Shown: piece by piece, positions 6,355 through 33,548 of the stretch
Layout of the letters: each line of letters starts with the position of its first letter
Position numbering within the stretch: position 1 is the stretch's first letter
Origin: Deltaproteobacteria bacterium
Lineage (GTDB): Bacteria; Desulfobacterota; Desulfobacteria; Desulfobacterales; C00003060
Length of the DNA: 33,548 nt
Direction of reading: 5' to 3'
Assembly (NCBI GenBank): GCA_030592345.1
Contig: JAUVJO010000003.1
Span: 1-33,548, forward strand
Notes under the pieces: generated by a model
Database searches by the model: none
What the model was told of the DNA's origin: nothing
The model's input: only the letters and a program-made list of their open reading frames with translations
Position numbers and translations under genes: made by a program

Positions 6355-6398
6355 CACAACTTTAGGCACTTTAGCTCACTTCAGACACTTTAGACACT
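6355..6398. repeat. CACTTTAG(N)N 9/10-mer array
   Basis: cacaactttaggcactttagctcacttcagacactttagacact; near-identical to 9600-9643. Confidence 0.85.
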
Positions 6399-6403
6399 CG
6401 AAA

Positions 6404-9457: not shown

Positions 9458-9473
9458 AGTTTATTCACTAATA

Positions 9474-9643
9474 TAAAGTGCCTAAAGTGAACTAAAGTGA
9501 GCTAAAGTGTCTAAAGTCAAGAAAAGGAGGATTTCAGGAATTGAGGTCGGATAGATATCTTTCAATTCACAATTCCCCGGTTCCCCAATCCTTAATAATC
9601 ACAACTTTAGGCACTTTAGCTCACTTTAGACACTTTAGGCACT
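9474..9643. repeat. Inverted pair of TAAAGTG 9/10-mer arrays
   Basis: 9474-9517 (taaagtgcc taaagtgaac taaagtgagc taaagtgtc taaagt) faces the reverse-complement array at 9604-9643. Confidence 0.88.
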
Positions 9644-9647
9644 TGTC

Positions 9648-18109: not shown

Positions 18110-18202
18110 TGGTTATTTGTCACTGGTTATTTGTCACTGGTTATTTGTCATTTGTCTCTTGTCACAAGTGGTAAACGAATCATACCAATGACAAATGACC
18201 AA
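18106..18202. repeat. GTCAYT/GTTATT heptamer array with inverted tail
   Basis: (ggttatttgtcact)x2 ggttatttgtcatttgtc... ending ccaatgacaaatgacc; contains the lolE ATG. Confidence 0.8.
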
Positions 18203-18203
18203 C

Positions 18204-18364
18204 TATACCTCGGAAGGTCACAAGTTGCGCTTTTCTCGGTGAGTCATGAGCATCAAGAGCAAGGCGCGAAGGCGCGGAATAGCTGGCTATTGCAAGCCTG
18301 AGCAACACGGCTATTAATGTTCATGGCCGGCGAAAAAGTGTCATTTGTGGCCTTTCGAGGTATA
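18204..18364 (+). mobile_element. 161-bp TA-ended palindromic MITE-like element, family B copy 1
   Basis: TATACCTCG...CGAGGTATA ends, long imperfect inverted arms, AAGGC...AACAC core; near-identical to 23581-23741; 1 bp from the lysS stop. Confidence 0.85.
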
Positions 18365-18365
18365 A

Positions 18366-19844
18366 CTAATAACTAATATTCTTTAACAGGGGAAAGAGGA
18401 TCACTTCACGGATGGAAGGCGCATCGGTCAGCAACATGACAAATCTGTCAACGCCGATGCCTTCACCCGCTGTTGGAGGCATGCCGTATTCGAGAGCTAA
18501 CAGGTAGTCTTCGTCCATGTAGTGTGCTTCTTCGTCACCTTCCTCACGATTTTTAGCCTGATCCAAGAAGCGCTTTTTCTGGTCAATAGGGTCGTTGAGT
18601 TCCGAAAACCCGTTGGCGATCTCGTAGCCTCCAATAAAGAGCTCGAATCGCTCGGTCATATCAGGGTCCGAGCTGCTCCTCCTGGCAAGTGGCGAGATTT
18701 CCACTGGATAGCCTGTAATAAAAGTGGGCTCGGTCAGTTTGGGCTCCACTAATACGTCGAAAAGCTTTGTCAGGATCTTGCCTCTCCGCCCTTTTTTCGT
18801 AATGTGGATCCCTTTGGATTCGGCAAAATCGAGCAATCGCTTCCGATCATTGAACAGGGAAGAATCAATGCCGCCCAGATCACTCAGTGCTTCCTTCAGT
18901 GTTAATCGTCGCCAAGGTCCATCCAAGTCAATGTTCATCCCCTGGTATGTAAAATGAGTCGCCCCAAAAACCCGCTGGGTCACGAATCGGAACATCTCCT
19001 CGGTAAAATTCATAAGATCGTCATACGTCGCATAAGCCGCATAGAATTCCAACATGGTGAATTCCGGATTGTGTCGGCTTGAAACACCTTCGTTTCTGAA
19101 ATTTCGGTTTATTTCAAAAACTCGATCAACCCCCCCAATCACCAATCGCTTTAGATAGAGCTCGGGTGCTATCCGCAAGAAAAGCTCCATGCCTAATGCG
19201 TTATGAAATGTTTTAAATGGGGTAGCCTCAGCCCCGCCGGGGATGGGCTGCATCATGGGTGTCTCCACCTCGAGGAAACCCTGTTCAAGTAGATAGTCCC
19301 TAAAGGCTCGAATAATTCGTGCCCTGTTGATAAAAATGTCCCGGACACCCGGGTTCATAATCAAGTCAAGATACCTCTGGCGGTAACGCTTCTCCGGGTC
19401 CCTTAGTCCGTGGAATTTTTCGGGCAGTGGCCTAACCGCCTTACAAAGCAGGCAAATCCCTTTGGCCAAAAGAGTCCATTCACCTGTCTTTGTCTGAAAT
19501 ATTGTCCCCTTGATTCCGATGAAGTCACCAATGTCAACTTGTTTGAACAACTCGTAGGCATCTTCGCCAACCTCGTCTTTTTTTACGTAAGCTTGAAGCT
19601 GCCCCGTGTAATCCTTGAAATGGAGGAACGCAGCCCTTCCGAAAGACCTGAGCCCGACAATCCGGCCAGCCATTGCAAAAAAAGTCGAATCATCGGCAGC
19701 CGTATCTTTTTTGCCAATATGCTTCCTTACGTCCTCGACACTGTGAGACACCTTGAAATCGTTGGGATAAAGCTCGACACCCTGGTCAGCCAGTGCCTTT
19801 GCTTTTTCTCGTCGTTGGCGAACAACTTCACTCGATTCGTCCAC
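18366..19844 (-). CDS. lysS: Lysyl-tRNA synthetase class II
   Basis: PLPEKFHGL, RYRQRYLDL, FLEVETPMM, RIAPELYLKRL, FRNEG, HNPEFTMLE, YGMPPTAGEGIG; GTG start at 19844 chosen. Confidence 0.98.
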   Translation of the reverse strand: MDESSEVVRQRREKAKALADQGVELYPNDFKVSHSVEDVRKHIGKKDTAADDSTFFAMAGRIVGLRSFGRAAFLHFKDYTGQLQAYVKKDEVGEDAYELFKQVDIGDFIGIKGTIFQTKTGEWTLLAKGICLLCKAVRPLPEKFHGLRDPEKRYRQRYLDLIMNPGVRDIFINRARIIRAFRDYLLEQGFLEVETPMMQPIPGGAEATPFKTFHNALGMELFLRIAPELYLKRLVIGGVDRVFEINRNFRNEGVSSRHNPEFTMLEFYAAYATYDDLMNFTEEMFRFVTQRVFGATHFTYQGMNIDLDGPWRRLTLKEALSDLGGIDSSLFNDRKRLLDFAESKGIHITKKGRRGKILTKLFDVLVEPKLTEPTFITGYPVEISPLARRSSSDPDMTERFELFIGGYEIANGFSELNDPIDQKKRFLDQAKNREEGDEEAHYMDEDYLLALEYGMPPTAGEGIGVDRFVMLLTDAPSIREVILFPLLKNISY

Positions 19845-19881
19845 AGTACACCGATACCTCACCGAAAAGTTTAAGAAATCT

Positions 19882-19910
19882 TTGCTAGCCCATTTGCCAT
19901 AACGTGTCAA
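19882..19910 (-). promoter_or_regulatory. Putative sigma70 promoter of lysS
   Basis: TTGACA-N17-TAGCAA on the minus strand. Confidence 0.5.
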
Positions 19911-19950
19911 GGCAAAAGGCCGGGCTTAACTAGGCCACAGGGTTCGAAGA

Positions 19951-20055
19951 TATAGACTTTCAAATATTAAATTTCACAAGGCCAGAGGGAGGAGGCTGTA
20001 TTGTAATACGCCGACGACTGATAACGCAGTGAAATTTAATACGTGAAAGTCTATA
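19951..20055 (+). mobile_element. 105-bp TA-ended palindromic MITE-like element, family A copy 1
   Basis: TATAGACTTTCA..ATTTCAC / GTGAAAT..AAAGTCTATA arms around AAGGCCAGAGGGAGGAGGCTGTATTGTAATACGCCGACGACTGATAACGC. Confidence 0.9.
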
Positions 20056-20120
20056 GACAGGCAATGAGGGAATAACGGCCCTTGAATCGGACCATGAGGC
20101 TTGAGACAAAAAAAGGGAAA

Positions 20121-20164
20121 AGTTCAGGGGTTCAGAGATTCAGGGTTCACCGAAACCCTGAACC
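20121..20164. repeat. GTTCAG short-unit array with inverted CTGAACC tail
   Basis: agttcaggggttcagagattcagggttcaccgaaaccctgaacc. Confidence 0.65.
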
Positions 20165-20238
20165 TTTTAACACCTGCAAAGAGGACAGCCCTGCAATCCG
20201 CATTCCGAAATACTTGAGAAGCCACTTCATCCACCGCG

Positions 20239-21450
20239 CTATTGGCCAACCATGCCTGCCATCTTGAAGATAGGCAAATACATGGAAACAACCAACCCCC
20301 CGATCGTCACACCCAAAAAGACCATCATAAAGGGCTCAATCATGGCTGTCAGGCTGGAAACAGCAGCATCCACCTCATCATCGTAGTAATCGGCTATCTT
20401 CTCGAGCATGGCATCCAAGGCCCCTGTAGATTCACCCACACCCACCATCTGACACACCATGGAAGGAAAGACCCCACTTTCTGCCAGGGGGGCTGCCATT
20501 GTTTGTCCCTCGCTGATAGCAGCGCGGACTTTGTAGACAGCCGACTCAACGGTCTTGTTACCTGCGGTCCTTGCCGTAATTTCGAGCCCGTCCAAGATTG
20601 GCACCCCACTACTGATCATGGTCCCCAGTATGCGTGTAAATTTGGCCACGGCGACCTTGCGAAGAAGCGGGCCAAAGACGGGTAGCTTCAGCAAATACTT
20701 GTCCACGAGGACACGCCCCTTTTCAGTCTTGTAAAATCGCCTGAATGCAAAGCCCAAAACCACAACAGCACCAATCATGTACAGGATGTTGCCTTTGACA
20801 AACCTGCTGAGTTCTACGACTATCTTGGTAGGTGCTGGGAGTTCACCGCCGAAATCTTTAAACATTTGTTCGAAAGTGGGAATTACAAAGACCAAGATTA
20901 CTCCAATGACCAAGACAGCAACGCAAAGGACTATAATAGGATAAGTCATGGCAGACTTCACCTGTTTTTTAAGCTTCTCAGCCTTTTCCATGTACGCGGA
21001 AAGGCGGTTTAGAATCGTATCCAAGATGCCGCCCGTCTCTCCTGCTGCCACCATATTGACAAATAGATCATCAAATATGTCCGGGTACTTCTTCAACGCA
21101 TCTGCGAGCGTCGCCCCACCCTCCACAGACTCCTTGATCTGCTTTAGCATCTTCTTAAACGTCTTGTTTTCTTGCTGAGAACACAAAATATCGAGACACT
21201 GAATCAGCGGAAGTCCGGCATTGATCATGGTTGCAAATTGCCTTGCAAATACCACCACATCAACGCGTCGCACCTTGGGTTGCAAGAAGGAAACGTTTTC
21301 AAACAGGTCCTTAGGCTTTTTCTTTATCTTGGTAGGCTTGATTTGCATGCGGCGCAGTTGAGCCTGCGCGGCGTCCTGATCAGCAGCCTCTAATTCTCCC
21401 TTGTGGATCATTCCTTTCCTGTCTTGACCCTGCCATAGATAGATTGGCAT
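20239..21450 (-). CDS. pilC: Type IV pilus platform protein (T2SS GspF family)
   Basis: FARQFATMINAGLP, GETGGILD, KSAMTYP, SSGVPIL, GESTGALD, SMYLPIF; ATG 21450 after GAGG. Confidence 0.95.
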   Translation of the reverse strand: MPIYLWQGQDRKGMIHKGELEAADQDAAQAQLRRMQIKPTKIKKKPKDLFENVSFLQPKVRRVDVVVFARQFATMINAGLPLIQCLDILCSQQENKTFKKMLKQIKESVEGGATLADALKKYPDIFDDLFVNMVAAGETGGILDTILNRLSAYMEKAEKLKKQVKSAMTYPIIVLCVAVLVIGVILVFVIPTFEQMFKDFGGELPAPTKIVVELSRFVKGNILYMIGAVVVLGFAFRRFYKTEKGRVLVDKYLLKLPVFGPLLRKVAVAKFTRILGTMISSGVPILDGLEITARTAGNKTVESAVYKVRAAISEGQTMAAPLAESGVFPSMVCQMVGVGESTGALDAMLEKIADYYDDEVDAAVSSLTAMIEPFMMVFLGVTIGGLVVSMYLPIFKMAGMVGQ

Positions 21451-21552
21451 ACGACACCTCTGCTCGCTATTCACACTAATTTGGGTTGACGTTCACAGGT
21501 TCAGAGTTTCCCGCTGAAAGCGGGGTTCAGTGTCACCCTTCTTTTGTTAGCC

Positions 21553-21665
21553 TATAGACTTTCACATATTAAATTTCACAGCGTTATCGGTCGTCGACGT
21601 ATTACAGTATTACAATACAGCCTCCTCCCTCTGGCCTTGTGAAATTTAATATGTGAAAGTCTATA
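21553..21665 (-). mobile_element. Family A copy 2 (113 bp, reverse orientation, internal 8-bp duplication)
   Basis: Perfect 28-bp arms; gtattaca duplicated at 21599-21614; lies between GTTCAG (21488-21530) and CTGAACC (21693-21710) arrays. Confidence 0.9.
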
Positions 21666-21737
21666 GCTCGTAGGACAATTAAGATTACGGTAAACCCTGA
21701 ACCCTGACGGTTATTTTCAAAATTTGTGGAAATTTTA

Positions 21738-21766
21738 TTGACAAGCAGAAAAAAGAGCAATATATA
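21738..21766 (+). promoter_or_regulatory. Putative sigma70 promoter of the PxxKW gene
   Basis: TTGACA-N17-TATATA with an AT-rich upstream region. Confidence 0.6.
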
Positions 21767-21822
21767 TTTAGGTTTTAGTGTAACTGTTTTACACATCATA
21801 AACAAGAAAGGAGGTGGTTCCA

Positions 21823-22101
21823 ATGGACTGCACAACCGTAAAGCCGGACACGGAATGCGTATTCATGACGAAGAAAGGTTGTTCCTTTAATGGCGGCACT
21901 TGCCATGCCATCGTGGAACAATGCGAAGGATGTGACCGCACCTCAAAATTTCCTTCTGGATGGTACTGCACGGCTTGTCCAGACCCTTCACTAAAATGGA
22001 AAAGAGGCAATTGTAACTTTGCCACCCATGTGAAGGATACAGCCAAGAGCAAGGTTGACAAGACGAATCCGCTCAAGGCATCCAAGCGAAATGCCCACTA
22101 G
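21823..22101 (+). CDS. PxxKW family cysteine-rich small protein
   Basis: Strong SD AAGGAGG; CEGC, YCTACPDPSLKW, CNFATH, NPLKASKR motifs; 9 Cys in 92 aa. Confidence 0.88.
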   Translation: MDCTTVKPDTECVFMTKKGCSFNGGTCHAIVEQCEGCDRTSKFPSGWYCTACPDPSLKWKRGNCNFATHVKDTAKSKVDKTNPLKASKRNAH

Positions 22102-22128
22102 TGTTACGTCTTAGTCAATGGTCATTGG

Positions 22129-22245
22129 GTAAACGTTCACCGTTTTCCGTTCACCGTTTTCCGTTCTTCGATAAGCACAACGGGAATTATGTCCCGATAT
22201 CCCCGGTGGACGGACAACGGATAACGGACTTCGGTTAACGATTAC
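22129..22245. repeat. Inverted CCGTT-based heptamer element with GTAAACGTTCAC / GTTAACGATTAC ends
   Basis: cgttcac cgttttc cgttcac cgttttc cgttc ... ggacggacaacggataacgg, between convergent genes. Confidence 0.7.
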
Positions 22246-22247
22246 GA

Positions 22248-23444
22248 CTAGACCAGCTTTCCAAGTGCAACCTCTATCCTGTTGAGACCTTCCTCTATTG
22301 TCTCAAGATTTGTTGCACAGGAAAATCTGATAAAATCCTCTGCACCAAAGGCACTCCCCGGCACAAGTGCGACCCGTGCCTCGGTCAAAAGGTACTCACA
22401 CAGATTGCTGGAGCCCTCCACAATCTTCCCGTCTTGGCGATCTGCCTTGAAATAGTGGTTAAAATCGGCGAAGGCATAAAAGGCGCCTCCTGGCATGTTG
22501 CAATCAACACCAGGTATGGCATTCAATCGTTTTACGAGGTATTTGCACCGCTGCTCAAAGGCTTGAACCATTTCCAGGACCGAATCCTGCGGACCGTTCA
22601 ATGCAGCGATCCCTGCCCTCTGAGCAATGGAATTGGGATTTGAAGTACTTTGGCTCTGGATTTTTGTCATTCCTGCAATCACTTCGCGGGCCCCGCCCAC
22701 ATACCCGATGCGCCATCCTGTCATGGCGTAGGTTTTCGACAATCCGTTGACAACAAACGTCTTTGATTTGAGACCTTCGCTTACCTGCGCAATGCTGTGA
22801 AAGGGTTTGCATCCAAAAATCAGCTTTTCGTAGATTTCATCTGAGACCACCGAGATATCGTGTCTTTCGACAACCTCAGCCAAGGCTTCCAGTTCCGATC
22901 TGGTGTAGACCGATCCTGTCGGGTTGGAAGGACTGTTAAGAATCAAGAGCTTGGTTCGTGGTGTGATGCATGCCTCAAGGGCATCAGGGGATAACTTGAA
23001 GTCTTGGGATTGCCTTGTTTCTGCAATAACAGGGCTCGCTCCTGCCAGAACCACAATCGGAGGATAGGAGACCCAATAGGGGGCTGGAATGATTACCTCA
23101 TCACCAGGGTTCAACGTGGCTTGTGCCAGGTTGTAAAGCACGTGTTTGCCTCCGCACGATACCATGACCTCTTCACGCTCGTAACTCAGGTTGTTGTCTC
23201 GGCGAAGTTTTTTTATGATGGCGTCCTTGATCTCAGGCATGCCCCCTACGGCAGTGTATCGCGTGAAGCCCCCCTCCATGGCCCGCACGGCCTCCTGGCA
23301 AATATGTTTCGGCGTATCGAAATCAGGCTCTCCAACACCAAAGCTGATCACATCTACCCCAGACTCTCGCATGGACACGGCCTTTGCATTTATGGCTAAG
23401 GTCGGAGAAGGCTTGACAGCCTTGATTCGTTCAGACACCAGCAT
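22248..23444 (-). CDS. aspC: PLP-dependent aminotransferase class I/II (aspartate aminotransferase-like)
   Basis: GVGEPDFDTP, PYWVSY, LNSPSNPTG, SDEIYE, NGLSKTYAMTGWRIGY (PLP lysine). Confidence 0.9.
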   Translation of the reverse strand: MLVSERIKAVKPSPTLAINAKAVSMRESGVDVISFGVGEPDFDTPKHICQEAVRAMEGGFTRYTAVGGMPEIKDAIIKKLRRDNNLSYEREEVMVSCGGKHVLYNLAQATLNPGDEVIIPAPYWVSYPPIVVLAGASPVIAETRQSQDFKLSPDALEACITPRTKLLILNSPSNPTGSVYTRSELEALAEVVERHDISVVSDEIYEKLIFGCKPFHSIAQVSEGLKSKTFVVNGLSKTYAMTGWRIGYVGGAREVIAGMTKIQSQSTSNPNSIAQRAGIAALNGPQDSVLEMVQAFEQRCKYLVKRLNAIPGVDCNMPGGAFYAFADFNHYFKADRQDGKIVEGSSNLCEYLLTEARVALVPGSAFGAEDFIRFSCATNLETIEEGLNRIEVALGKLV

Positions 23445-23580
23445 GATAACCACTCACTCTATTCTAGGCTACTCCCGGTTTCCATTGGAGGCCCTGCTGA
23501 GCAGGATTCTCCTTGCCCGCAAGGCCATTACAACAACCTCAAGCAATACGGATTTTTTGAAAAGTTAGTTTTTCTTGACC

Positions 23581-23741
23581 TATACCTCGGAAGGTTATAA
23601 ATGGCGATTTTCTCGGTGAGTCATGAGCATCAAGAGCAAGGCACGAAGGCGCGGAATAGCTGGCTATTGCAAGCCTGAGCAACGCGGCTATTGATGTTCA
23701 TGGCCGGCGAAAAAGTGTCATTTGTGGCCTTTCGAGGTATA
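23581..23741 (+). mobile_element. 161-bp TA-ended palindromic MITE-like element, family B copy 2
   Basis: Same ends and core as 18204-18364 (core AAGGC...AACGC). Confidence 0.85.
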
Positions 23742-23835
23742 ACATGGTAGACTCATTATAAATCAAAAAGCTCAAGAAAGACGAATCTACCTTACTATAA
23801 ATAACTATCAGACTTCGGACCGAAAGGCAATTCCT

Positions 23836-26121
23836 TTGAAAAAGAAAAGTTTGTTAAGGCATTTTTCTTTGAAAATAAAAACAGATCGCATCACCATCGC
23901 AGGGAAATGGACGTTGTATTACGTCCTGATCGGCCTTATTGCCGGCCTGGGCTCCGTCGCCTTTCAATATCTTTGCCAGATAGGGTCACACGTTTTCTTG
24001 GATCAAATGGCCGGCTACAGTCCACCCTCACCTGCCGGAGAACCTCACCTGTTTTCACCAACAAACACACCATTCAATCGTTGGATACTCTTGTTTCTGC
24101 CAGCCTTGGGAGGCATCGTTAGCGGATGGCTGGTCTATACCTTTGCCCCCGAGGCAGAAGGCCATGGGACAGATGCTGCCATTGATTCGTATCACAATAA
24201 GGGAGGATTTGTGCGTGGAAGAATACCGTTTATCAAAACTATTGCCTCCGCGCTCACCATAACCTCGGGCGGTTCAGGGGGCCGCGAGGGACCGATCGCC
24301 CAGATTGGGGCTGGCTTTGGTTCTTACCTTGCCACAAGGCTTGGACTCTCTGACAGGCAACGTCGAATTATGTTGGCAGCAGGCATTGGTGCCGGTGTCG
24401 GAAGCATCTTCCGCGCGCCGCTGGCAGGAGCGCTATTTGCTGCCGAAGTCCTTTACCGAGAGCCTGAGTTTGAAGCAGAAGTGATCATCCCTTCCGGCAT
24501 TTCGTCGGTCGTTGCTTACTGTGTCTTTTGCCTGGTGTTCGGATGGGGGTCCCTGTTTGAATCTCAGGATTTTCTTTTTCGAAACCCCTTGGAACTGGGC
24601 CCCTATATTGTGCTCGCCTTTGTCTTGGTTGGAGGCGGGATATTGTATATCAAGTCCTTTTATGGGGTGCAGCACGTTTTCAGGGAGTTCAAGATTCCCA
24701 ATCACATCAAACCGGCCATTGGAGGTCTGTGCACCGGTGTTATCGGTTTCTTTCTCCCTGCAACTCTTTCCTTCGGCTACGGCTATGCGCAAATGGCCTT
24801 AAACAACGAGGTCCCCGCCCTCTTCGGGTTTCCGACGCTTTTCCTCCTGGCCCTGGCCTTTGGAAAGATATTGACCACTGCTTTTACAATCGGCTCCGGA
24901 GGCAGTGGCGGCGTATTTGGCCCATCCATCGTTATCGGTGGGGCCTTGGGGGGGGCAGTGGGCAGGATTTTTCATGCCATCATGCCAGGTATTGTGGTCG
25001 AGCCAGGGGCATTTGTAGTTGTGGGCATGGCCGGGTTCTTTGCTGCTGTGTCCAATGCCCCGATCTCGACGATAATTTTTGTCAGCGAAATGACTAATTC
25101 ATATCACCTGCTGCTGCCCAGCTTACTGGTTTGCTCACTTGCTTACTTGCTCTCGCGAAATTGGACAATTTATATCAAGCAAGTGCCAAGCAGGATAGAT
25201 TCCAATGCACACCGCGGCGATTTCTTTGTGGATGTGCTTGGTACCATCAGGGTGAAAGAAATCCTCGGCCAGGTGAGAAGAGTGGAACTGATCCCTGAAG
25301 ATATGCCGCTCACGGCTTTCAGAAGGATGTTTTCCTCAACAGACCAGCACTATTTCCCGGTCGTAAATAAGGAGGCCCGGCTGACTGGAATATTTTCCAT
25401 TAATGACGTCAGGGGCGTTATCTTTGATCAGGAAATCGGCAGTCTCGTGGTCATGAAAGATATCGCCAACCCGGACATTATTGTTACAACCCCATCTGAA
25501 GACCTCAGTGAGGTACTCAAGAAGTTTACCATTCGCAACCTTCACAGGCTCCCGGTCGTTAAGGACGAAGATCATTCCATTCTGCTCGGGATGTTAGATA
25601 GAAGGGAGGTCATCCAGTATTACAACCAGAAAGTCGAAGTGATTAAGTCAAGACACGATAGAGAAGATATTGAGAAAAACCACGAAATCAGCCAACTCAA
25701 ACACGTACGCGTGCGCCAGGCCATGAGGAGAGACACGGAAACAATCCTGGCGAGTATGCCACTCAAGGAACTAAGGGAATTTATTTTTCAATGCAAGTAT
25801 AGCAGTTTTCCTGTAGTTGATGCCCTGGGTCTTTTGAGGGGCGTCATTTCCTTAGCTGATTGCCAGAAGGCCTTTGATGAAAAGACCGAAAAAGCGCTGA
25901 CAGCGCAAGAGATCGCCACCCGTGATCTCGTCACTGTGACTGAAGATGATACACTGTTCTTGGCCCTTACCAGAATCATTCAAGGAGATTTCTCCATACT
26001 CCCCGTAGTGAGCAAAGAGAATCCCAAATTGCTCCTGGGCGTTATCAGCCGCAGGGATATCATGTCCACATATGACGATATTGTAATCAAAAACGTGGCC
26101 AGAGATACATCAGCCGCCTGA
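23836..26121 (+). CDS. ClC family chloride channel / H+ antiporter with two CBS pairs
   Basis: GHGTD, GREGP, FRAPLAG, GGVFGP, APIS..FVSEMT motifs; two C-terminal CBS pairs; TTG start uncertain. Confidence 0.92.
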   Translation: MKKKSLLRHFSLKIKTDRITIAGKWTLYYVLIGLIAGLGSVAFQYLCQIGSHVFLDQMAGYSPPSPAGEPHLFSPTNTPFNRWILLFLPALGGIVSGWLVYTFAPEAEGHGTDAAIDSYHNKGGFVRGRIPFIKTIASALTITSGGSGGREGPIAQIGAGFGSYLATRLGLSDRQRRIMLAAGIGAGVGSIFRAPLAGALFAAEVLYREPEFEAEVIIPSGISSVVAYCVFCLVFGWGSLFESQDFLFRNPLELGPYIVLAFVLVGGGILYIKSFYGVQHVFREFKIPNHIKPAIGGLCTGVIGFFLPATLSFGYGYAQMALNNEVPALFGFPTLFLLALAFGKILTTAFTIGSGGSGGVFGPSIVIGGALGGAVGRIFHAIMPGIVVEPGAFVVVGMAGFFAAVSNAPISTIIFVSEMTNSYHLLLPSLLVCSLAYLLSRNWTIYIKQVPSRIDSNAHRGDFFVDVLGTIRVKEILGQVRRVELIPEDMPLTAFRRMFSSTDQHYFPVVNKEARLTGIFSINDVRGVIFDQEIGSLVVMKDIANPDIIVTTPSEDLSEVLKKFTIRNLHRLPVVKDEDHSILLGMLDRREVIQYYNQKVEVIKSRHDREDIEKNHEISQLKHVRVRQAMRRDTETILASMPLKELREFIFQCKYSSFPVVDALGLLRGVISLADCQKAFDEKTEKALTAQEIATRDLVTVTEDDTLFLALTRIIQGDFSILPVVSKENPKLLLGVISRRDIMSTYDDIVIKNVARDTSAA

Positions 26122-26132
26122 AATATCGGGGG

Positions 26133-26393
26133 GGGCGTGTCCAGAACTTTGGGGATGCACTTATGAAACGACTTGCGCCACATTTGTGGAGTACATTAAG
26201 TGCCTAAAGTGAGCTAAAGTGCCTAAAGTTAAGGTGTTCTGCCTATTTTAAATATGTTGCGCCGGAGACGCACTGCTTAATCCCGCTAAAGGCAGGACTC
26301 ACTTTCTTGCAATAATAAAACTGTTTCTTCAAGTCCTTAATCCCGCTAACAGCGGGACTCACTTTAGACACTTCAGGCACTTTAGCTCACTTT
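26133..26393. repeat. Composite element: ~65-bp leader, inverted TAAAGTG arrays and two TCCCGC mini-palindromes
   Basis: 26133-26229 matches 33371-33481; arrays at 26197-26229 and 26360-26393; tcccgctaaaggcagga at 26281 and tcccgctaacagcggga at 26341. Confidence 0.8.
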
Positions 26394-26438
26394 CTTTCTT
26401 CAGAAGGATGCGGAAAAGTTGTTGTCTCCCCACAGTTA

Positions 26439-27200
26439 TTAGATAAGCCCGTCGCGAGGTCTATATTTGACTTCCCTCAGGAACAACCCATGAGGGGGAG
26501 CTGTCTTGCCTGCCTGTTTGCGATCCTTTGAAAGCAGAATCTCCCTAAACTCCTTTGGCGATGTTTTTCCCATACCCACATCTACCAGACTGCCAACGAT
26601 GTTTCGCACCATGCACCGCAAGAACCCGTCGGCCTCAATACTGAAAACCAGGTAGCCGTCTGCATCCTTTGCTGCGAAGCTCACATCCACTACAGTTCGT
26701 ACCGACTGGGTTCTGGGGCTACCGCTTGCCTCAAAGGCCGAAAAGTCGTGCTTACCTTTCAGGTAAAACATGGCCGTCCTCATGGCACCAAGATCAAGGC
26801 ACTTTTTGATGTGCCAGACGTACTTCCGAAAGATGGCCGCCGGGAGGGGCCGATTCAAGATACGATAATCGTAAATCTTGCTCCAGGCATCGTATCGGGA
26901 ATGGAACGTGTCAGGGACTTCTTTGCAATCTTTTATCACTATGTCTGCTGGCAGCAGGCTGTTTAAGCCCCTTTTGAAGATGTCAGGTGTGAGCTTTGTA
27001 GCGACCGAAAAGTTGGCGACCTGGTTTAGGGCGTGTACGCCAGCATCGGTCCGTCCAGACCCGATAACAGCGACCGAACGTCCGGTCATGGTCTTGAGCG
27101 CAGCTTCAATCGTGCCCTGAATCGTGGGAGTCACCTTCTGGCGCTGCCATCCATGATAATCCGTGCCGTCGTACTCGATAATAAGCTTGAAGTTGGACAA
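26439..27200 (-). CDS. truA: tRNA pseudouridine(38-40) synthase
   Basis: IEYDGTDYHGWQRQ, GSGRTDAGVHA, GKHDFSAF, FLRCMVRNIVG, TAPPHGLFL. Confidence 0.97.
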   Translation of the reverse strand: MSNFKLIIEYDGTDYHGWQRQKVTPTIQGTIEAALKTMTGRSVAVIGSGRTDAGVHALNQVANFSVATKLTPDIFKRGLNSLLPADIVIKDCKEVPDTFHSRYDAWSKIYDYRILNRPLPAAIFRKYVWHIKKCLDLGAMRTAMFYLKGKHDFSAFEASGSPRTQSVRTVVDVSFAAKDADGYLVFSIEADGFLRCMVRNIVGSLVDVGMGKTSPKEFREILLSKDRKQAGKTAPPHGLFLREVKYRPRDGLI

Positions 27201-27204
27201 TGGA

Positions 27205-27323
27205 TAAAGTGCCTAAAGTGAGCTAAAGTGAGCTAAAGTGCCTAAAGTTAAAAGAAAAAACCAAATTTTTGCAAAGAGTTTCCTCAGCTTGCAACCAAAA
27301 TTAAGCTCACTTTAGCACTTCAG
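27205..27323. repeat. TAAAGTG array with degenerate inverted partner
   Basis: taaagtgcc taaagtgagc taaagtgagc taaagtgcc taaagt ... gctcactttagcacttcag. Confidence 0.82.
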
Positions 27324-27330
27324 TTCCCTG

Positions 27331-28368
27331 TCAAAGAGGAAAGGGTACTTGGTCCAGGCCTGCTGTCTCTGGAAATCCAAACATGATATTCATGTTCTGC
27401 ACGGCCTGCCCGGAGGCGCCTTTTACCAGGTTGTCAATAGCAGACACAAGGATCAGGCGTTTTGTGCGCTCCGCTACCCTGACTCCGATGTCGCAAAAAT
27501 TTGTCCCTTTCACGTGCCGCGTGTCCGGAAATTTGCCAGGCGGACAGATCCGAACAAAAGGTTTATTCTCAAAAAAAATATCAAGACAGGAAGTTACGTC
27601 CTGTGTGGAAATAGACTCTTTCAGGCCAACGTAAGTCGTGGTTAGCATCCCCCGTGTCATGGGAACCAGGTGGGGTACAAACGTGATGTGAATCGCGCGT
27701 CCGGCAAACAGGCTCAATACTTCGTCCATCTCCGGGTTATGTCGATGCTCTGCCACCTTGTACGCCTTAAAACCTTCATTGACTTCACAAAAGAGCGTCG
27801 CCAGACTCACGGACCGGCCTGCACCACTGGCGCCTGACTTTGAATCTGAAATGATGTTCTCCAGGTCCACAAACCTGGCCTTCACAAGAGGTAGCAACGG
27901 TAGAACGACACTGGTGGGATAGCACCCCGGGTTGCCAATCAGAGAAGCATTCCGGATCTCGCTGAAATAGATTTCAGGAAGCCCGTAAACCGCAGATTCA
28001 AGCAAATCTTTTGCCTGATGCGGTTCATACCATGCCTCGTACAAAGCAGGATCCTTGAACCTGAAATCCGCGCCAAGATCAATGACCTTCTTGCCTTGGC
28101 CAATAAGCCCTGGCACCACGGCCATGGATGCCTTGTGTGGAAGGGCGGTAAAGACAACGTCACTCGCCTCGGAGACAGCCTCTTCAGAAAACGGTTGGCA
28201 TGTCAAATCCACAATACCGGCCATGCTCGGATAAATATCCGAAAAGCGAGTGCCCACGTACTGCCGGGAGGTAATCATCGATAATCTTGCATGAGGATGA
28301 CCTGACAGAATCCTTACCAGTTCTGCCCCGGCATAGCCAGTGGCACCAACAACTGCGGCCCTAACCAT
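27331..28368 (-). CDS. argC: N-acetyl-gamma-glutamyl-phosphate reductase
   Basis: VGATGYAG, ALPH, DLGADFR, GNPGCYPT, SGASGAG, HRHNPE, IDNLVKGASGQAVQN. Confidence 0.97.
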   Translation of the reverse strand: MVRAAVVGATGYAGAELVRILSGHPHARLSMITSRQYVGTRFSDIYPSMAGIVDLTCQPFSEEAVSEASDVVFTALPHKASMAVVPGLIGQGKKVIDLGADFRFKDPALYEAWYEPHQAKDLLESAVYGLPEIYFSEIRNASLIGNPGCYPTSVVLPLLPLVKARFVDLENIISDSKSGASGAGRSVSLATLFCEVNEGFKAYKVAEHRHNPEMDEVLSLFAGRAIHITFVPHLVPMTRGMLTTTYVGLKESISTQDVTSCLDIFFENKPFVRICPPGKFPDTRHVKGTNFCDIGVRVAERTKRLILVSAIDNLVKGASGQAVQNMNIMFGFPETAGLDQVPFPL

Positions 28369-28387
28369 ATCGCCTCCTAAGAAAGGG

Positions 28388-28604
28388 TGTAACCGTTCAC
28401 GGGGCTCAGATGAATGGTTGCGGTTGCGCTACTCGTTACGGTTATCGTTGTGCGTTGTGCGGCTCCAAAAACAACTCAACCGACAGACGACAGACGTACT
28501 GTTTTCAAGGCGCAAGCCGCAAACGAGTCGCGCAACCGATAGACGACAGACAGCCAAGGGGCTAAGGTCTTACTCCCAACACATGAACCCCGTGAACGGT
28601 TACA
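28388..28604. mobile_element. 217-bp MITE-like element with 21-bp terminal inverted repeats and 6-bp flanking direct repeat
   Basis: TGTAACCGTTCACGGGGCTCA / TGAACCCCGTGAACGGTTACA (1 mismatch); AAAGGG at 28382-28387 and 28605-28610; internal stems and GACAGAC heptamers. Confidence 0.7.
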
Positions 28605-28662
28605 AAAGGGTATACTTCACACGGCCACGAACTGCGTTTTCTTGAGAGAGGGAAACACAGGC

Positions 28663-28767
28663 TATAGACTTTCACATATTAAATTTCACAAGGCCAGAGG
28701 GAGGAGGCTGTATTGTAATACGCCGACGACCGATAACGCCGTGAAATTTAATATGTGAAAGTCTATA
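28663..28767 (+). mobile_element. Family A copy 3 (105 bp)
   Basis: Consensus arms and core. Confidence 0.9.
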
Positions 28768-28851
28768 TATACCAGAACTATCCGAGGGGCACAAGCAAGT
28801 GAAACAGTGAAAGGAGCAAAACCATCAGGCAGGAAAGCCAACGATTCAGCG

Positions 28852-29091
28852 TCAGTGTCTGTTGCCCTGGCGGCCGCTGAAACGATATGTGATTCTCCCC
28901 CGTGAGAGGTCGTACGGCGAAAGTTCTACAGTTACCGTGTCTCCCGGAAGGATCTTTATCGAATATTTGCGCATTTTTCCACACGGATGAGCAAGTATCT
29001 GATGCTTGTTCTCCAACTCTACCTTATAGTTGCCGTGGGACATATCCTGGATGACTTTGCCGCGTACTTCAATGGCGTCTTCTTTTGCCAC
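28852..29091 (-). CDS. infA: Translation initiation factor IF-1 (divergent, probable paralog)
   Basis: [39 protein letters not shown]; GTG start 7 nt after AAGGAGGTGA. Confidence 0.9.
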
Positions 29092-29197
29092 TATCAATTC
29101 ACCTCCTTGTGTAGGGCATATTCATGACACTAGCTCCGCTTTTCTCCGCAATCGGAATAATGGAATTGTGGAATATTGGGTTTAAAAGGGTTTCTAC

Positions 29198-29302
29198 TAT
29201 AGACTTCCACATATTAAATTTCACAAGGCCAGAGGGAGGAGGCTGTATTGTAATACGCCGACGACCGATAACGCTGTGAAATTTAATATGTGAAAGTCTA
29301 TA
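29198..29302 (+). mobile_element. Family A copy 4 (105 bp)
   Basis: Consensus arms (1 mismatch) and core; 16 bp from the rpsI stop. Confidence 0.9.
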
Positions 29303-29318
29303 GTCAAAGGCTTCTAAG

Positions 29319-29708
29319 CTACCGCTTGGAATACTGGAAGCGGGCGCGAGCCCCTTTTTGACCGTACTTTTTTCGTTCTTTGATCCTTGGGTCCCGTGTA
29401 ACAAAACCAGCCCTTTTCAGAACCAGTCTGAATTCCGGATTCACCTGAAGCAACGCCTTGGTGATACCATGCCGAATGGCAGCCGCCTGACCGGAAATCC
29501 CGCCGCCCGAGACATTGACGTTTATGTCATAGCTACCATACGTATCAGTCAAAACCAGAGGTTGCTCCACAATCATCTTGGCAGTTTCCCTGCCAAAATA
29601 ATCATCGATACTCCGCTTGTTGATAACAATGCTTCCTTTTCCTGGTTTAAGCCATGTTCTGGCCACCGAGGTTTTCCGCTTTCCAGTACCATAATAAGCT
29701 TCTGGCAT
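29319..29708 (-). CDS. rpsI: 30S ribosomal protein S9
   Basis: [45 protein letters not shown]. Confidence 0.99.
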
Positions 29709-29717
29709 AAAAAACTC

Positions 29718-30152
29718 CTAGACCTGAGGTCGCAGTGGTTGAGGCCGCTGTGCCACATGTGGGTGATCTGGTCCTGCATAAATTTTGAGTTTTGTTAGCA
29801 TTTTACGACCGAGTCTATTTTTTGGAAGCATCCCGCGGACAGCACAGGTGACCAAATCCTCAGGCCGCTTATGCAAAAGCTGTTTGGCGGTCATAGACTT
29901 AAGCCCCCCGACGTAACCACTGTGGCGATAGTACATCTTCTGGTCCCACTTCGCGCCTGTCAAAGCGACTTTAGCCGCATTAATCACAATGATGTGATCC
30001 CCAGTATCAATATGGGGCGTATAAATGGGTTTATGCTTTCCCGAGAGTCGAACGGCAACCAGGCTGGCGAGTCTGCCCAAAACACACCCGTTCGCATCAA
30101 TGACGTACCATTTTCTTCCAACTTCTTTTGGTTTTGCAGAATAAGTTTTCAT
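29718..30152 (-). CDS. rplM: 50S ribosomal protein L13
   Basis: [47 protein letters not shown]. Confidence 0.99.
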
Positions 30153-30193
30153 GATTCGGTCTCTCTCTGAGTGTTAAGTGCTATAAAAGGGTG

Positions 30194-30223
30194 ACCATAA
30201 ATCCCATCAGTTCGCAATGTCAA
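30194..30223 (-). promoter_or_regulatory. Putative sigma70 promoter of rplM-rpsI
   Basis: TTGACA-N18-TATGGT on the minus strand. Confidence 0.55.
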
Positions 30224-30270
30224 GGGAAAAATCACTCTTTGTTGCGCAAGCGCACTGGCGCTCAAACTTC

Positions 30271-30299
30271 TTGACAAACGCTCCGGATTCTAATACGTG
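30271..30299 (+). promoter_or_regulatory. Putative sigma70 promoter of adk
   Basis: TTGACA-N17-TACGTG. Confidence 0.45.
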
Positions 30300-30313
30300 A
30301 GCGATCTTAGGTG

Positions 30314-30567
30314 GTGCCTGAACGAAAGTTACCCTTCCGTGTCATTTCGAGCGAAGTGAGAAATATGTTGTTTGTTGTTTACGGATTTCTTCCCGCTATA
30401 GGCTTTAAGATAAAGATTTTGGGAAGGCTAGAGGGAGGAAGGCGTACTCGTCGTACGTTGACGACCGATAACGCATCCAAAATCTTTATCTTAAAGCCTA
30501 TAACAGCGTGATCGAAATAACAACTAAAGCAGCCCCAACGAGAAGAAGGGGATTTCCGTTCAGGCAC
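30314..30567. repeat. Nested inverted-repeat elements in the putative adk leader
   Basis: Outer GTGCCTGAACG..CCCTTC / GAAGGG..CGTTCAGGCAC; middle TGTCATTTCGA (30340) / TCGAAATAACA (to 30522); encloses family A copy 5. Confidence 0.75.
30397..30502 (+). mobile_element. Family A divergent copy 5 (106 bp)
   Basis: Perfect 26-bp arms TATAGGCTTTAAGATAAAGATTTTGG; core AAGGCTAGAGGGAGGAAGGCGTAC..GTACGTTGACGACCGATAACGC. Confidence 0.87.
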
Positions 30568-30596
30568 TAAGCAAACTTACAAGAAAGGAGAGGAGT

Positions 30597-31271
30597 ATGA
30601 ACATTTTGATGTTTGGACCAAACGGCAGTGGCAAGGGGACACAAGGGGCGATCGTAAAGGACAAATACAATCTGCCCCATGTTGAATCAGGGGCAATATT
30701 CCGTGAAAATATCGGTAAAGGTACGGAAATCGGCGTCAAGGCCAAAGAATATATTGACCGCGGCGAATTAGTGCCGGACGAAATCACCATTCCGATGATT
30801 CTGGACCGCCTGAAACAAGACGATTGCAAAAATGGCTGGCTCTTGGATGGGTTCCCGAGAAACAAAGTACAGGCCATAAAACTGGATGAAGCCCTGAAGG
30901 CCGCTGGCTTGGATCTGGATATTGTGGTCGAGGTGCTTCTGGATAGAGAAATTGCCAAGAACCGTATTATGGGGCGCAGGTTGTGCGCGAACGACAACAA
31001 TCATCCGAACAACATTTTTATTGACGCAATAAAACCGGATGGCGACAAGTGCCGTGTATGCGGTGGCGATCTTTCAACACGGTCCGACGATCAGGATGAA
31101 GATGCCATCGGCAAACGCCACGCTATTTACTACGATACTGATACCGGCACGTTGGCAGCGACTTATTATTTCAAAGATCTCGCTGAAAAAGAAGGCAAAA
31201 TCAAATATATTAACCTGGATGGCTCCCCCGGCGTAAAAGAGGTAACGGCAGATTTGATGTCGAAACTGTAA
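30597..31271 (+). CDS. adk: Adenylate kinase, Desulfovibrio-type metal-binding LID
   Basis: GPNGSGKGTQ, GELVPDEIT, LLDGFPRN, LID C-X5-H-X15-C-X2-C, RSDD. Confidence 0.96.
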   Translation: MNILMFGPNGSGKGTQGAIVKDKYNLPHVESGAIFRENIGKGTEIGVKAKEYIDRGELVPDEITIPMILDRLKQDDCKNGWLLDGFPRNKVQAIKLDEALKAAGLDLDIVVEVLLDREIAKNRIMGRRLCANDNNHPNNIFIDAIKPDGDKCRVCGGDLSTRSDDQDEDAIGKRHAIYYDTDTGTLAATYYFKDLAEKEGKIKYINLDGSPGVKEVTADLMSKL

Positions 31272-31332
31272 GGACATCCAGAACAACTTCTGTGCCTGCC
31301 CGGAACAACCAGGTTTCAGGCAGGCATGCATT

Positions 31333-31447
31333 TATAGACTTTCAGATAATTAATTTCACAAGGCCAGAGGGAGAAATCCGAGTAAGGCGTACGTTGTCGA
31401 GGATTTTGACCGATAACGCCGTGAAATTATTTATCTGAAAACCTATA
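31333..31447 (+). mobile_element. Family A divergent copy 6 (115 bp)
   Basis: Arms TTTCAGATAATTAATTTCAC / GTGAAATTATTTATCTGAAA; core extended by a GAAATCC/GGATTTT stem; between convergent adk and PilZ genes. Confidence 0.85.
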
Positions 31448-31473
31448 GCTCCGCTGTTCACGCATCATGCATC

Positions 31474-31866
31474 TCAAACATCATGGGCCTGTGGTGCTAC
31501 ACCCGTGGTGTAGACCTTAAGAAAAAGATCCAGTTGCGAAACCTTGTCTTCTGTGAGTCCCACAAACTGCACACCACACTGTTTGGTCATGAAGGTCTCA
31601 AACACTATGCGACTGGCATCATCAGACTTACGCTTTGGCATGTCATAGACGACCCTACACGGCACCTTGGCCAAATGAAAATCATTGCCGGAAAGAAAGA
31701 TATCTAATTGGGAGGCTTCCTGGTCTGAATCTTCATCAGTTATATACTCAAAAGCCAAGCCGCCTATGCTTATATTTTTGATCTTCCCAACTCTGGCAAA
31801 AGTGGACCCAAGTGCAGCGAATGCACTATCATGCGGCACGAACCGAATTTGTCTTCTCTGTTCCAT
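31474..31866 (-). CDS. PilZ domain protein (putative c-di-GMP receptor)
   Basis: RRQIR (RxxxR) and NISIGG (D/NxSxxG) motifs, GVQF strand. Confidence 0.85.
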   Translation of the reverse strand: MEQRRQIRFVPHDSAFAALGSTFARVGKIKNISIGGLAFEYITDEDSDQEASQLDIFLSGNDFHLAKVPCRVVYDMPKRKSDDASRIVFETFMTKQCGVQFVGLTEDKVSQLDLFLKVYTTGVAPQAHDV

Positions 31867-32100
31867 TGCCCCTCTATTTCACCTCAAAATTGATCCGGTT
31901 GATTAGAAAGATCCACAAACCTAACTTTGACCCGTTACACATAGTCATCTTCGTTTTCATTTTTGCGGGAAAATTCGGTGACTGTCAAGGATTATTCTTG
32001 GGGGTGATAAAATGGGTATGCCCTCTACCTACCCCTTCGCTCCAAGAGCTGAAAAAGGGTTTTGTCGATGTTCCAATTGTGCTGAAGCCCCAAAGTTAGG

Positions 32101-32187
32101 TGGTGCCGAAGGGGAGACTCGAACTCCCACGGGCGTACACCCACTAGACCCTGAACCTAGCGCGTCTACCAGTTCCGCCACTTCGGC
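32101..32187 (-). tRNA. tRNA-Leu (anticodon CAG)
   Basis: GCCGAAG acceptor stem, D arm with TGGTAGAC, anticodon arm CTAGG-TTCAGGG-TCTAG, long variable arm, GTTCGAG T loop, encoded CCA. Confidence 0.98.
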
Positions 32188-32192
32188 ACTTC

Positions 32193-32297
32193 TATAGACT
32201 TTCACATATTAAATTTCACAGCGTTATCGGTCGTCGGCGTATTACAATACAGCCTCCTCCCTCTGGCCTTGTGAAATTTAATATGTGAAGGTCTATA
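32193..32297 (-). mobile_element. Family A copy 7 (105 bp, reverse orientation)
   Basis: Consensus arms and core; ends 5 bp before tRNA-Leu +1. Confidence 0.9.
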
Positions 32298-33370: not shown

Positions 33371-33538
33371 GGGCGTATCCAGAACTCTTGGGGGATGCAT
33401 TCTCTTGAAACGACTTGCGCCGCATTTGTGAAGTACATTAAGTGCCTAAAGTGAACTAAAGTGAGCTAAAGTGCCTAAAGTAAAGGATGATATCCATTTG
33501 TGTTAGAGAAGTACTTGCTGGAAAAGTGCCTAAAGTTG
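33371..33538. repeat. Second copy of leader + TAAAGTG array (runs towards the window end)
   Basis: gggcgtatccagaact..gaaacgacttgcgcc.catttgtg.agtacattaagtgcctaaagtg matches 26133-26229; further unit at 33523-33537. Confidence 0.82.
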
Positions 33539-33548
33539 AAAGACAAAA

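Follow-up and report, generated by a model that had tools for sequence, protein, structure and literature searches.

The repeats described here, families A and B, are non-autonomous DNA transposons (MITEs) that insert at TA, duplicate this dinucleotide, and take up their orientation at random. We place them in a new superfamily of MITEs whose core is strand-specific and under unusual constraint, although a covariance model of the A core has no significant match to family B, which speaks against a formal superfamily. Our reading as a whole, which we consider probable, is that these TA-inserting MITEs are moved in trans and that the core is a cis-acting foldback that serves their spread. The usual definition of a MITE rests on its ends, with the interior regarded as filler. 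In these MITEs, it is the interior fold that is the most conserved part; this fold is strand-specific and is found again both with unrelated arms and in other phyla.

The window, that is, the whole stretch of DNA that was analyzed, comprises 33,548 nt from a Deltaproteobacteria bacterium (GCA_030592345.1, contig JAUVJO010000003.1, positions 1–33,548, forward strand). An earlier note on this DNA had named nine copies, and all nine were re-found at their positions: seven of family A, in three sub-types (A1, A5, and A6), and two of family B.

18204–18364, + strand: family B copy 1, 161 nt long, with a TA at either end and ~57-nt arms
19951–20055, + strand: family A1 copy, 105 nt with the two TA counted; core match 19974–20031 (75.3 bits)
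21553–21665, − strand: family A1 copy, 113 nt, apical loop with an 8-nt duplication; core match 21577–21642 (67.7 bits)
23581–23741, + strand: family B copy 2, 95% identity to family B copy 1 (18204–18364)
28663–28767, + strand: family A1 copy, equal to the genome-wide consensus; core match 28686–28743 (76.8 bits)
29198–29302, + strand: family A1 copy; core match 29221–29278
30397–30502, + strand: sub-type A5; core match 30420–30478 (74.6 bits)
31333–31447, + strand: sub-type A6; core match 31356–31423 (41.4 bits)
32193–32297, − strand: family A1 copy, polymorphic; core match 32217–32274

In the window copies, the family A core reads AAGGC-C-A-GA-GG-GA-G-GA-GGC(T)GTATT-GT-AATAC-GCC-GA-C-GA-CC-GA-T-AACGC, identical to the letters given before. 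The variants described earlier were likewise present. The fifth A copy (A5, 30397–30502) has an exchanged apical hairpin, GGCGTAC-TCGTC-GTACGTT, in which GGCGTAC/GTACGTT includes G·T pairs, and different inner arms (AAAGATTTTGGG) over an unchanged basal core. The sixth (A6, 31333–31447), a copy of the 125-nt form in which the apex is shortened, carries an additional helix, AAATCC/GGATTT, inserted between the GA/GA pairs, and a fourth GA/GA pair. The family B copies contain AAGGC-RC-GA-AGGC...GCCT-GA-GC-AACRC, with AAGGC-GC-GA-AGGC...GCCT-GA-GC-AACAC in copy 1. That the core stays nearly constant between different arms and apices, as had been claimed, is seen both within this genome and across phyla.

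These elements have the attributes by which bacterial MITEs are recognized. They are 105–161 nt long, non-coding, and multi-copy, with inverted terminal arms of 27 nt in family A and about 57 nt in family B. The assembly contains 248 TIR-paired A-type elements (A1 173, A5 50, A6 12, plus rarer forms) and 42 complete copies of family B, and 16-mers that occur at least eight times make up about 4.6% of it. Movement can be read from two kinds of junction. Six copies of family B with GGAATAGCTGG in the apex hold a nested A element, GGAATA[TAGAC...GTCTA]TAGCTGG; these insertions amount to 103 extra nt with the TA duplicated, and both orientations are represented. The A1 copy at 32193–32297 is missing from contigs of two other metagenome studies (runs X10 and X11), where the empty-site joint 32192->32296 skips 103 nt with ends TA..TA, two letters being assignable to either side. 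The six nests and the empty site in two studies thus provide both target-site duplication and presence/absence polymorphism, and the 2-bp TA duplication is the one found in MITEs mobilized by IS630/Tc1-mariner elements. The target consensus is C-TA-G, with C before TA in 239 of 494 half-sites and an A/T-rich position −3. No preferred orientation was found relative to local GC skew (109 against 97) or gene direction (105 against 101), and the complete G082 chromosome has 23 plus and 33 minus copies, interspersed. This randomness argues against IS608-like single-strand insertion. IS200/IS605-derived elements and REPINs have no duplication and no long TIR, insert with a strand bias, and have a Y1 transposase as partner. 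An IS200/IS605-derived (PATE) or REPIN identity does not fit the long TIRs, the TA duplication, and the absent strand bias seen here.

The A core with different arms occurs in at least 102 stretches of the species-genome collection. Among the matches listed, these are mostly from Desulfobacterales, and the other carriers are MAGs labelled Nitrospinota, Balneolaceae/Fodinibius (with diverged arms), and Pseudomonadota. One Nitrospinota MAG of 1.4 Mb has 106 copies, compared to 0 in the control. Between phyla, the core is near-invariant and the inner arms are almost wholly different yet still paired, while it should be considered that this set was gathered by the core itself and that its constancy there is partly by construction. 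In family C (genome G322), unrelated arms surround AAGGC...AACGC with the same GA-G-GA/GA-C-GA ladder. Across 401 genomes of the phylum of G322, a set outside which Neisseria and the enterobacteria lie, only a handful showed more matches to the architecture pattern than the control. In the window, the A-core covariance model found exactly the seven A copies at E ≤ 8e-10, with the next match at E 1.5. The cross-matches that the earlier note anticipated did not materialize: neither family B (8.9 bits, E 1.7) nor ERIC (7.3 and 6.9 bits, E about 2) gave a significant hit, which is evidence against a formal superfamily.

The fold itself is pronounced, with z-scores from −7.5 to −11.3 and 0 of 200 shuffles folding equally well. 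The AAGGC strand was the better folder in 67 of 73 unique elements. Family B copy 1 folds as RNA at −84.6 kcal/mol on the + strand and −56.0 on the opposite strand, and the A1 copy at 28663–28767 at −52.1 vs −47.9 kcal/mol. The gain in the window copies is modest (4–5 of about 50 kcal/mol with RNA parameters, <2 kcal/mol with DNA parameters), and in family C it is nil. The arms played no part in defining the strand; in them, the AAGGC strand has 43 G·T wobbles vs 10 A·C, and elements with more G·T than A·C number 23 vs 4 (p = 3e-4). Core mismatches are 233 G·A vs 36 C·T. The earlier claim that GA ladders and G·T wobbles mark the AAGGC strand therefore holds.

Covariation of the core, which had also been proposed, was borne out in part. 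One clean pair and the variable apex covary, and the rest of the conserved core gives no signal; most of it never varies and is consequently uninformative on pairing. The core pair left free by the search pattern was GC in 53, AT in 18, GT in 5, and AC in 2 of 78 unique cores (short and long forms). In alignment A2, 22 cells had changes on both sides, where shuffling gave 4.7; none of the 500 shuffles attained the observed value. Template switching can mimic compensatory change in palindromes without selection. In some old copies (L133, L140, L144, and L148), the core has decayed while the arms remain intact.

To account for these patterns, we propose that the transposase that supplies the mobility of A and B in trans is most likely a DDE enzyme of the IS630/Tc1-mariner kind, which would recognize the inverted repeats by their outer ~16 bp. 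The AAGGC/AACGC loop, followed by a helix that alternates Watson–Crick pairs with tandem G·A mismatches, forms a special centre. Still-spreading lineages in several phyla have kept it almost unchanged, whereas their inner arms and apical hairpins have been swapped or have covaried. Because the mismatches are purine–purine and only one strand has G·T wobbles, the constraint would act on how the AAGGC strand folds by itself rather than on a site bound as double-stranded DNA. In old copies, the core seems to decay at the pace of the arms, which suggests that it works for the element's own spread rather than for the host. We read the core as a cis-acting foldback that holds the two ends together, is bound during mobilization, or both. 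If transcribed, the element would form a long hairpin, as printed for ERIC, and the ERIC of enterobacteria appears to be laid out on the same plan.

The earlier note had seen no mobilizing enzyme in the window, and none was found there or in the assembly. No full-length IS with matching ends encoding DDE_3 (PF13358) was found in the assembly, 10 other carriers, or 30 DDE_3 loci of the order, most of these genomes being incomplete MAGs in which absence is not proven. DDE_3 itself is absent from this assembly and the complete G082, G280, and G321–G325 (8 of the 11 carriers looked at). Nor does this domain follow the MITE copies in its distribution (7 of 17 MITE-rich genomes vs 123 of 301 genomes of the order overall), and where it occurs, the IS ends, inspected at 30 DDE_3 loci, differ from the MITE ends. 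Several candidates were discarded. L011 is an IS630-like element with different ends, and L012, also an IS630-like IS, has inserted into the apical TA of an old MITE and is no parent element. The ends of DDE_Tnp_1 elements (assembly and five carriers) differ, as do those of IS4/IS5-type elements in G082 and further genomes. A search for PF13586 in the assembly found nothing, and none of five genomes had IS982 (PF13612). Y1_Tnp occurs in 261 of 301 genomes of the order, a near-ubiquity that gives no signal for or against a partner role. Longer members enclosing an ORF, another suggested lead, were not seen: facing TIR pairs 400–3000 nt apart in the assembly enclose host genes. The 29 TIRs without the core motif in the following 60 nt had no recurring IS interior, and tblastn with the ORFs of IS loci matched flanking host genes only.

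Other explanations of the conserved core need to be weighed. There is some chance, though we would not expect it, that the core has been kept by descent and hitch-hiking. A few recently successful master copies would have spread, partly through horizontal transfer, while recombination or nested insertion reshuffled the modules. In that case, the resemblance to B, C, and ERIC would be fortuitous, or would go back to a common origin and have no function today. Within-genome copies are indeed 98–100% alike, diversity is roughly even along the element (154 A1 copies), the TA-rich apical loop is a proven insertion target, and some TIR-ascertained elements have the same ends with other interiors (L118, L119, L147, L149, and L155). 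The missing matches of the covariance model to B and ERIC also fit. However, descent would not readily produce a core that is near-invariant across phyla while differing inner arms still pair, mismatches all of the type that one strand tolerates, or a free pair that covaries via G·T intermediates. Moreover, AAGGC/AACGC mirrored in A, B, C, and ERIC would have a probability of about one in a million per loop if random, by our own estimate and not a computed test.

The core may instead act as RNA, with the hairpin of a read-through transcript controlling the processing, stability, or translation of neighbouring messages and good-fold copies being retained. In the available parts of the literature, RNA-level roles are reported for ERIC, which is co-transcribed and linked to RNase E cleavage (PMC3184786), and for Correia (RNase III). 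The strand-specific G·U and G·A content and the larger asymmetry with RNA than with DNA parameters are consistent with such a role. The AAGGC strand is sense between co-directional genes in 88 vs 64 cases, but this excess is non-significant (p = 0.06, crude ORF calls). The core also decays in old copies, and the Rfam comparison that had been suggested linked the elements to no described RNA family, a tRNA being the sole match in the window at the gathering score and noise all that appeared at E ≤ 10. We consider it unlikely that the core acts as RNA.

That the element moves as a folded single strand, with an enzyme recognizing the AAGGC-strand hairpin with paired ends and not two separate double-stranded ends, seems to us very unlikely. 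Such recognition would account for the missing classical transposase beside A/B, ERIC, and Correia, and DDE_3 is absent from most carriers examined. Pairing is kept over the whole length with G·T on one strand only, arms included, and inner arms covary though three sub-types with different inner arms were recently active in one genome. However, insertion shows no strand bias in the complete chromosome or against skew, unlike IS200/IS605, the TA duplication and symmetric ends fit double-strand integration, and the Y1 distribution is silent. It is scarcely credible that a host protein, such as a nucleoid protein bending the element as proposed for IHF in Correia, binds the two halves of the core as double-stranded DNA: while AAGGCYAGARGGAG and GAYYGATAACGC are strongly conserved in primary sequence, neither half is an inverted copy of the other (they agree at 7 of 13 positions, each mismatch being GA vs TC), no IHF-like consensus was seen by eye, and the G·T bias in the arms would be left without explanation.

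A foldback core in TA-inserting MITEs invites comparison with known repeats, first of all with ERIC, to which the earlier note had likened these elements. At the level of layout, the resemblance is real. An architecture-only pattern, consisting of the family-A layout alone, found four sites in E. coli K-12 vs two in the control, and three of the four are ERIC copies, with GA/GA loops. To our knowledge, no resident transposase of ERIC has been identified, and its means of movement has not been worked out. We take ERIC to be the same as MITEEc1. Like family A, it is ~105–127 nt long with TA at both ends and a hairpin over the whole length, has AAGGC at positions 28–32 behind a 27-nt arm with AACGC mirrored opposite, and contains tandem GA/GA loops 1–2 pairs apart; its AAGGC strand, too, folds better (−54.5 vs −40.9 kcal/mol). 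Unlike family A, it has unrelated arms and a host of a different phylum, and its GA ladder lies behind an inner AAGC/ACGC loop, whereas that of A lies behind the outer AAGGC. The two share layout only, and family A has no significant match to ERIC in sequence. The ERIC/IRU entry is printed as MITEEc1_IS630 (PMC11602168).

The Correia elements of Neisseria (CREE/NEMIS) were compared by descriptions only. According to the available parts of these sources, they start with TATAG and have 26-nt inverted repeats, a TA duplication, and a length of 104–157 nt (PMC5039591, PMC2649163, PMC1431543), and the part of PMC2649163 available gives no mobilizing mechanism as determined. Families A and B share the TATAG-starting ends and the TA duplication, and are of similar size. 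In the available part of one old gonococcal paper, the repeat is followed by AAGGC, and AACGC by the repeat, as in A. Beyond TATAG, however, the 26-bp Correia repeat as these partial texts describe it (PMC5039591, PMC2649163) is unrelated to A and B, and the IHF site and promoters attributed to Correia elements were not seen in A/B. RUP of Streptococcus pneumoniae, given as ~107 nt with a TA target and inverted repeats in the accessible part of its source (PMC2229807), and other IS630-derived MITEs resemble A and B in these same three features. For RUP, IS630-Spn1, whose ends match, has been proposed as the partner, whereas a partner of A/B was not found.

Kinship of these elements with ERIC and Correia is plausible but unproven. 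It is quite improbable, in our judgment, that the AAGGC/AACGC loop and G·A ladder are the recognition module of a widespread mobilization system handling a folded single strand, which would make ERIC, Correia, and the Desulfobacterales, Nitrospinota, and Balneolaceae elements one class. If the link is false, these repeats add a further, very abundant family to the MITEs by which metagenome assemblies are broken. The same plan is visible in ERIC and, as far as the partial sources go, perhaps in Correia, two textbook repeats for which no means of movement has been established. Should the link prove true, cultured Desulfosarcina carriers together with E. coli would offer a direct route to the mover and to the purpose of the G·A ladder.

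The elements studied here belong to a highly successful superfamily of TA-duplicating MITEs. The nine copies that the earlier note had read between 18204 and 32297 are all present, and its description of their core, AAGGC...AACGC with a tandem G·A ladder, is correct in every detail.

Elements in the window, each located with a repeat finder and by direct reading
18204-18364, family B
19951-20055, family A1
21553-21665, minus strand, family A1
23581-23741, family B
28663-28767, family A1
29198-29302, family A1
30397-30502, sub-type A5
31333-31447, sub-type A6
32193-32297, minus strand, family A1

The sole Rfam match within the window is a tRNA (32104-32187), and a permissive Rfam scan of three MITE copies returned noise only. 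Other repeats occur in the same stretch. A tandem 14-nt repeat (TCACTGGTTATTTG, 3-4 units, family D14) lies at 18106-18161, immediately upstream of the first B copy. A separate dispersed repeat, with a short CTAAAGTG-like unit, forms arrays in both orientations at 6351-6399, 9473-9529, 9596-9644, 26164-26260, 26358-26382, 27204-27260, and 33406-33548; metagenome contig depth is very high in the bins with the arrays at 26164-27260.

The assembly to which the window belongs, G000 (3.26 Mb, 444 contigs, 89.7% complete), contains 248 A-type elements whose ends are paired (173 A1, 50 A5, 12 A6, plus rarer forms, 127-137 nt long) and 42 complete family B copies. With copies broken by contig ends included, the 3' core motif of A occurs 363 times and that of B 109 times. 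Identity among copies is mostly 98-100%, and 148,920 bases of the assembly fall in segments of 16-mers that occur at least 8 times. There are also variants on the theme. In sub-type A7 copies (e.g., C361:810, C98, and C1:4744) and a 258-nt element at C288:874, a 17-nt hairpin, TCCCGCTTTCAGCGGGA, substitutes for the core AAGG or is found inside other MITEs; the hairpin may itself be mobile, as an even smaller unit. Another MITE, about 195 nt long (C248:17710, and C166 on the minus strand, about 2943 from the contig end), combines A5-like ends with a different interior, which is rich in CTGGATAC-like repeats.

Evidence of movement comes from occupied and empty sites. Where family B usually has the apical loop GGAATAGCTGG, six copies carry GGAATA, an entire A element (TAGAC to GTCTA), and TAGCTGG, which makes them 103 nt longer; the nested A element is inverted in one of the six. 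Contigs from two other metagenome studies jump from 32192 to 32296, a gap of exactly 103 nt, and the A copy beside the tRNA gene is therefore an insertion polymorphism. The skipped segment has TA at each end, and two letters can be assigned to either side. Only 5 nt separate this copy from the 5' end of the minus-strand tRNA gene, which places it in the promoter region of that gene. Of 494 half-sites, 239 have C immediately before the TA, and position -3 is rich in A and T; the preferred target is C|TA|G. Insertion orientation is random, whether scored against local GC skew (109 versus 97) or the prevailing gene direction (105 versus 101); between co-directional genes, from crude ORF calls, the split was 88 versus 64 (p = 0.06). 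On the complete 4.07-Mb chromosome of a relative, G082, copies on the plus strand (23) and on the minus strand (33) are intermixed with no replichore pattern. Random orientation fits symmetric integration into double-stranded DNA and not insertion into a single-stranded template.

The earlier note had proposed that one core sits between different arms, and this is true both within G000 and in several phyla. The sub-types in G000 are alike over the first 14-16 nt of their ends (TATAGRYTTTMASATA), and the basal core, AAGGCYAGAGGGAG...GACCGATAACGC, is identical in A1, A5, and A6. Over the 12 inner nt of each arm the sub-types match hardly at all, with complementarity retained. The apex also differs: GTATT/AATAC in A1, GCGTAC/GTACG in A5, and in A6 an extra AAATCC/GGATTT helix with one more GA/GA pair, for which a rarer form has AAACCC/GGGTTT, a compensatory change. 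When elements were collected by their ends alone, the majority had the A core and six had other interiors.

Beyond this assembly, a core-pattern scan with one genome per species returned at least 102 stretches. Among the matches listed, the titles are chiefly Desulfobacterales, Desulfosarcina, or seep sulfate reducers, together with several MAGs labelled Nitrospinota, Balneolaceae/Fodinibius, and Pseudomonadota. Carriers include complete Desulfosarcina chromosomes and cultured strains of Desulfosarcina cetonica and D. alkanivorans. The Nitrospinota MAG (1.4 Mb) had 106 matches to the architecture pattern versus 0 in the control. In the Balneolaceae elements the arms have diverged strongly and the ladder persists, with G·T substituting for a G:C. 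Family C, in a genome labelled Pseudomonadota, has unrelated arms and has in common with A the AAGGC...AACGC core and the GA-G-GA / GA-C-GA ladder.

Several measurements bear on selection for the fold. Covariation in the arms is strong, but it is less telling because inverted repeats necessarily covary. Among 78 unique cores (short and long forms), the one core pair left unconstrained by the search pattern was GC in 53, AT in 18, GT in 5, and AC in 2. In a 43-sequence core alignment, in which most columns are invariant, changes on both sides occurred in 22 cells versus 4.7 in shuffles (0 of 500 shuffles equalled the observed value), and the score drops once pairing partners are slid. Because the sequences are related, neither these counts nor the strand counts below represent independent events. 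Diversity along the element is roughly even across 154 A1 copies.

Mismatches and wobbles are biased to one strand. Core mismatches were G·A in 233 cases versus C·T in 36, and the AAGGC strand folds better in 67 of 73 unique elements (means of -45.1 versus -39.2 kcal/mol). The G·T wobbles that the earlier note had seen on the AAGGC strand are borne out in the arms, which were not used in defining the strand: 43 non-Watson-Crick positions there are G·T and 10 are A·C, and elements richer in G·T number 23 versus 4 (p = 3e-4). For the window copies, the energy advantage of the AAGGC strand is 4-5 kcal/mol as RNA and less than 2 with DNA parameters; in family C it is nil.

No transposase with ends matching these MITEs (TAGRYTTTMASATA) was found, in the window, as the earlier note had stated, or in the wider search. 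DDE_3 (PF13358, the transposase domain of the IS630 kind) was not found in G000, in the complete G082, or in six other carriers, and in carriers that do have it the IS ends differ from the MITE ends. Short-read bins lose multi-copy IS. Nor did DDE_3 follow MITE load: it was present in 7 of 17 genomes with at least 10 end motifs versus 123 of the 301 genomes surveyed in the same order, in which roughly 70 genomes carry the end motif. An IS630-like IS with a two-frame transposase (L012:1334-2650, in G293:C268) lies inside an old A-type MITE and adjoins an intact copy. It was considered as a parent; it has its own short inverted repeats and sits in the apical TA of the old copy, and is therefore a nested insertion. 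G082 has about 100 DDE_Tnp_1 matches, including about 45 copies of one 390-aa transposase, whose ends (GTCCGGTTAAGTTTTTGCAT) are unrelated to the MITEs, and it was rejected as a partner. We suggest that the elements would be moved in trans by a DDE transposase specific for TA. In old copies the core has decayed with the flanking arms intact, and because of this decay the core may be read as a cis-acting fold that serves propagation.

Our analysis adds proof of TA duplication, the cross-phylum spread, strand statistics, and a test against ERIC; no described Desulfobacterales MITE was found in the main texts of the literature searched. The likeness between A and B is one of plan. A covariance model of the A core found all 7 window A copies (E <= 8e-10); the cross-match to family B that the earlier note had set as a test came to 8.9 bits (E 1.7) for one copy, at noise level, with the other copy unlisted, and by that test the proposed link fails. 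Family B has an AAGGC/AACRC loop whose two sides occupy mirrored places, 57 nt from one end and 56 nt from the other; next come GC:GC, a single GA/GA, and AGGC:GCCT. Its long-arm differences, read by eye, are all G·T on the same strand, and its fold comes to -84.6 versus -56.0 kcal/mol.

The proposed resemblance to ERIC held in layout and not in the model score. The family A layout (TATA, 23 letters, AAGGC, 30-60 letters, AACGC) had 4 matches in E. coli K-12 versus 2 in the control, and three of the four are ERIC copies, identified against the ERIC-type sequence printed in PMC2759123, Table 1a. In two of these three loci, the best match of the A-core model fell on the ERIC core with the register preserved, scoring 7.3 and 6.9 bits (E about 2), a placement that carries no weight because the loci were preselected with part of the same motif. 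When folded, ERIC shows GA/GA loops, with GA-GT-GA facing GA-AC-GA and a further GA facing GA next to the apical helix, and its AAGGC strand reaches -54.5 kcal/mol versus -40.9 for the other strand. The parts available of two reviews (PMC2229807 and PMC3184786) and of the 2024 census (PMC11602168) contain no statement of a core common to ERIC and Correia elements, and PMC2649163 describes the Correia mobilising mechanism as not determined. Family A and ERIC share an architecture, as do families A, B, and C; for Correia elements a likeness is possible, as their repeat variants begin TATAG (PMC5039591, PMC2649163) and a 1987 gonococcal paper appears to have AAGGC directly after the repeat, and AACGC directly before it, two times each.
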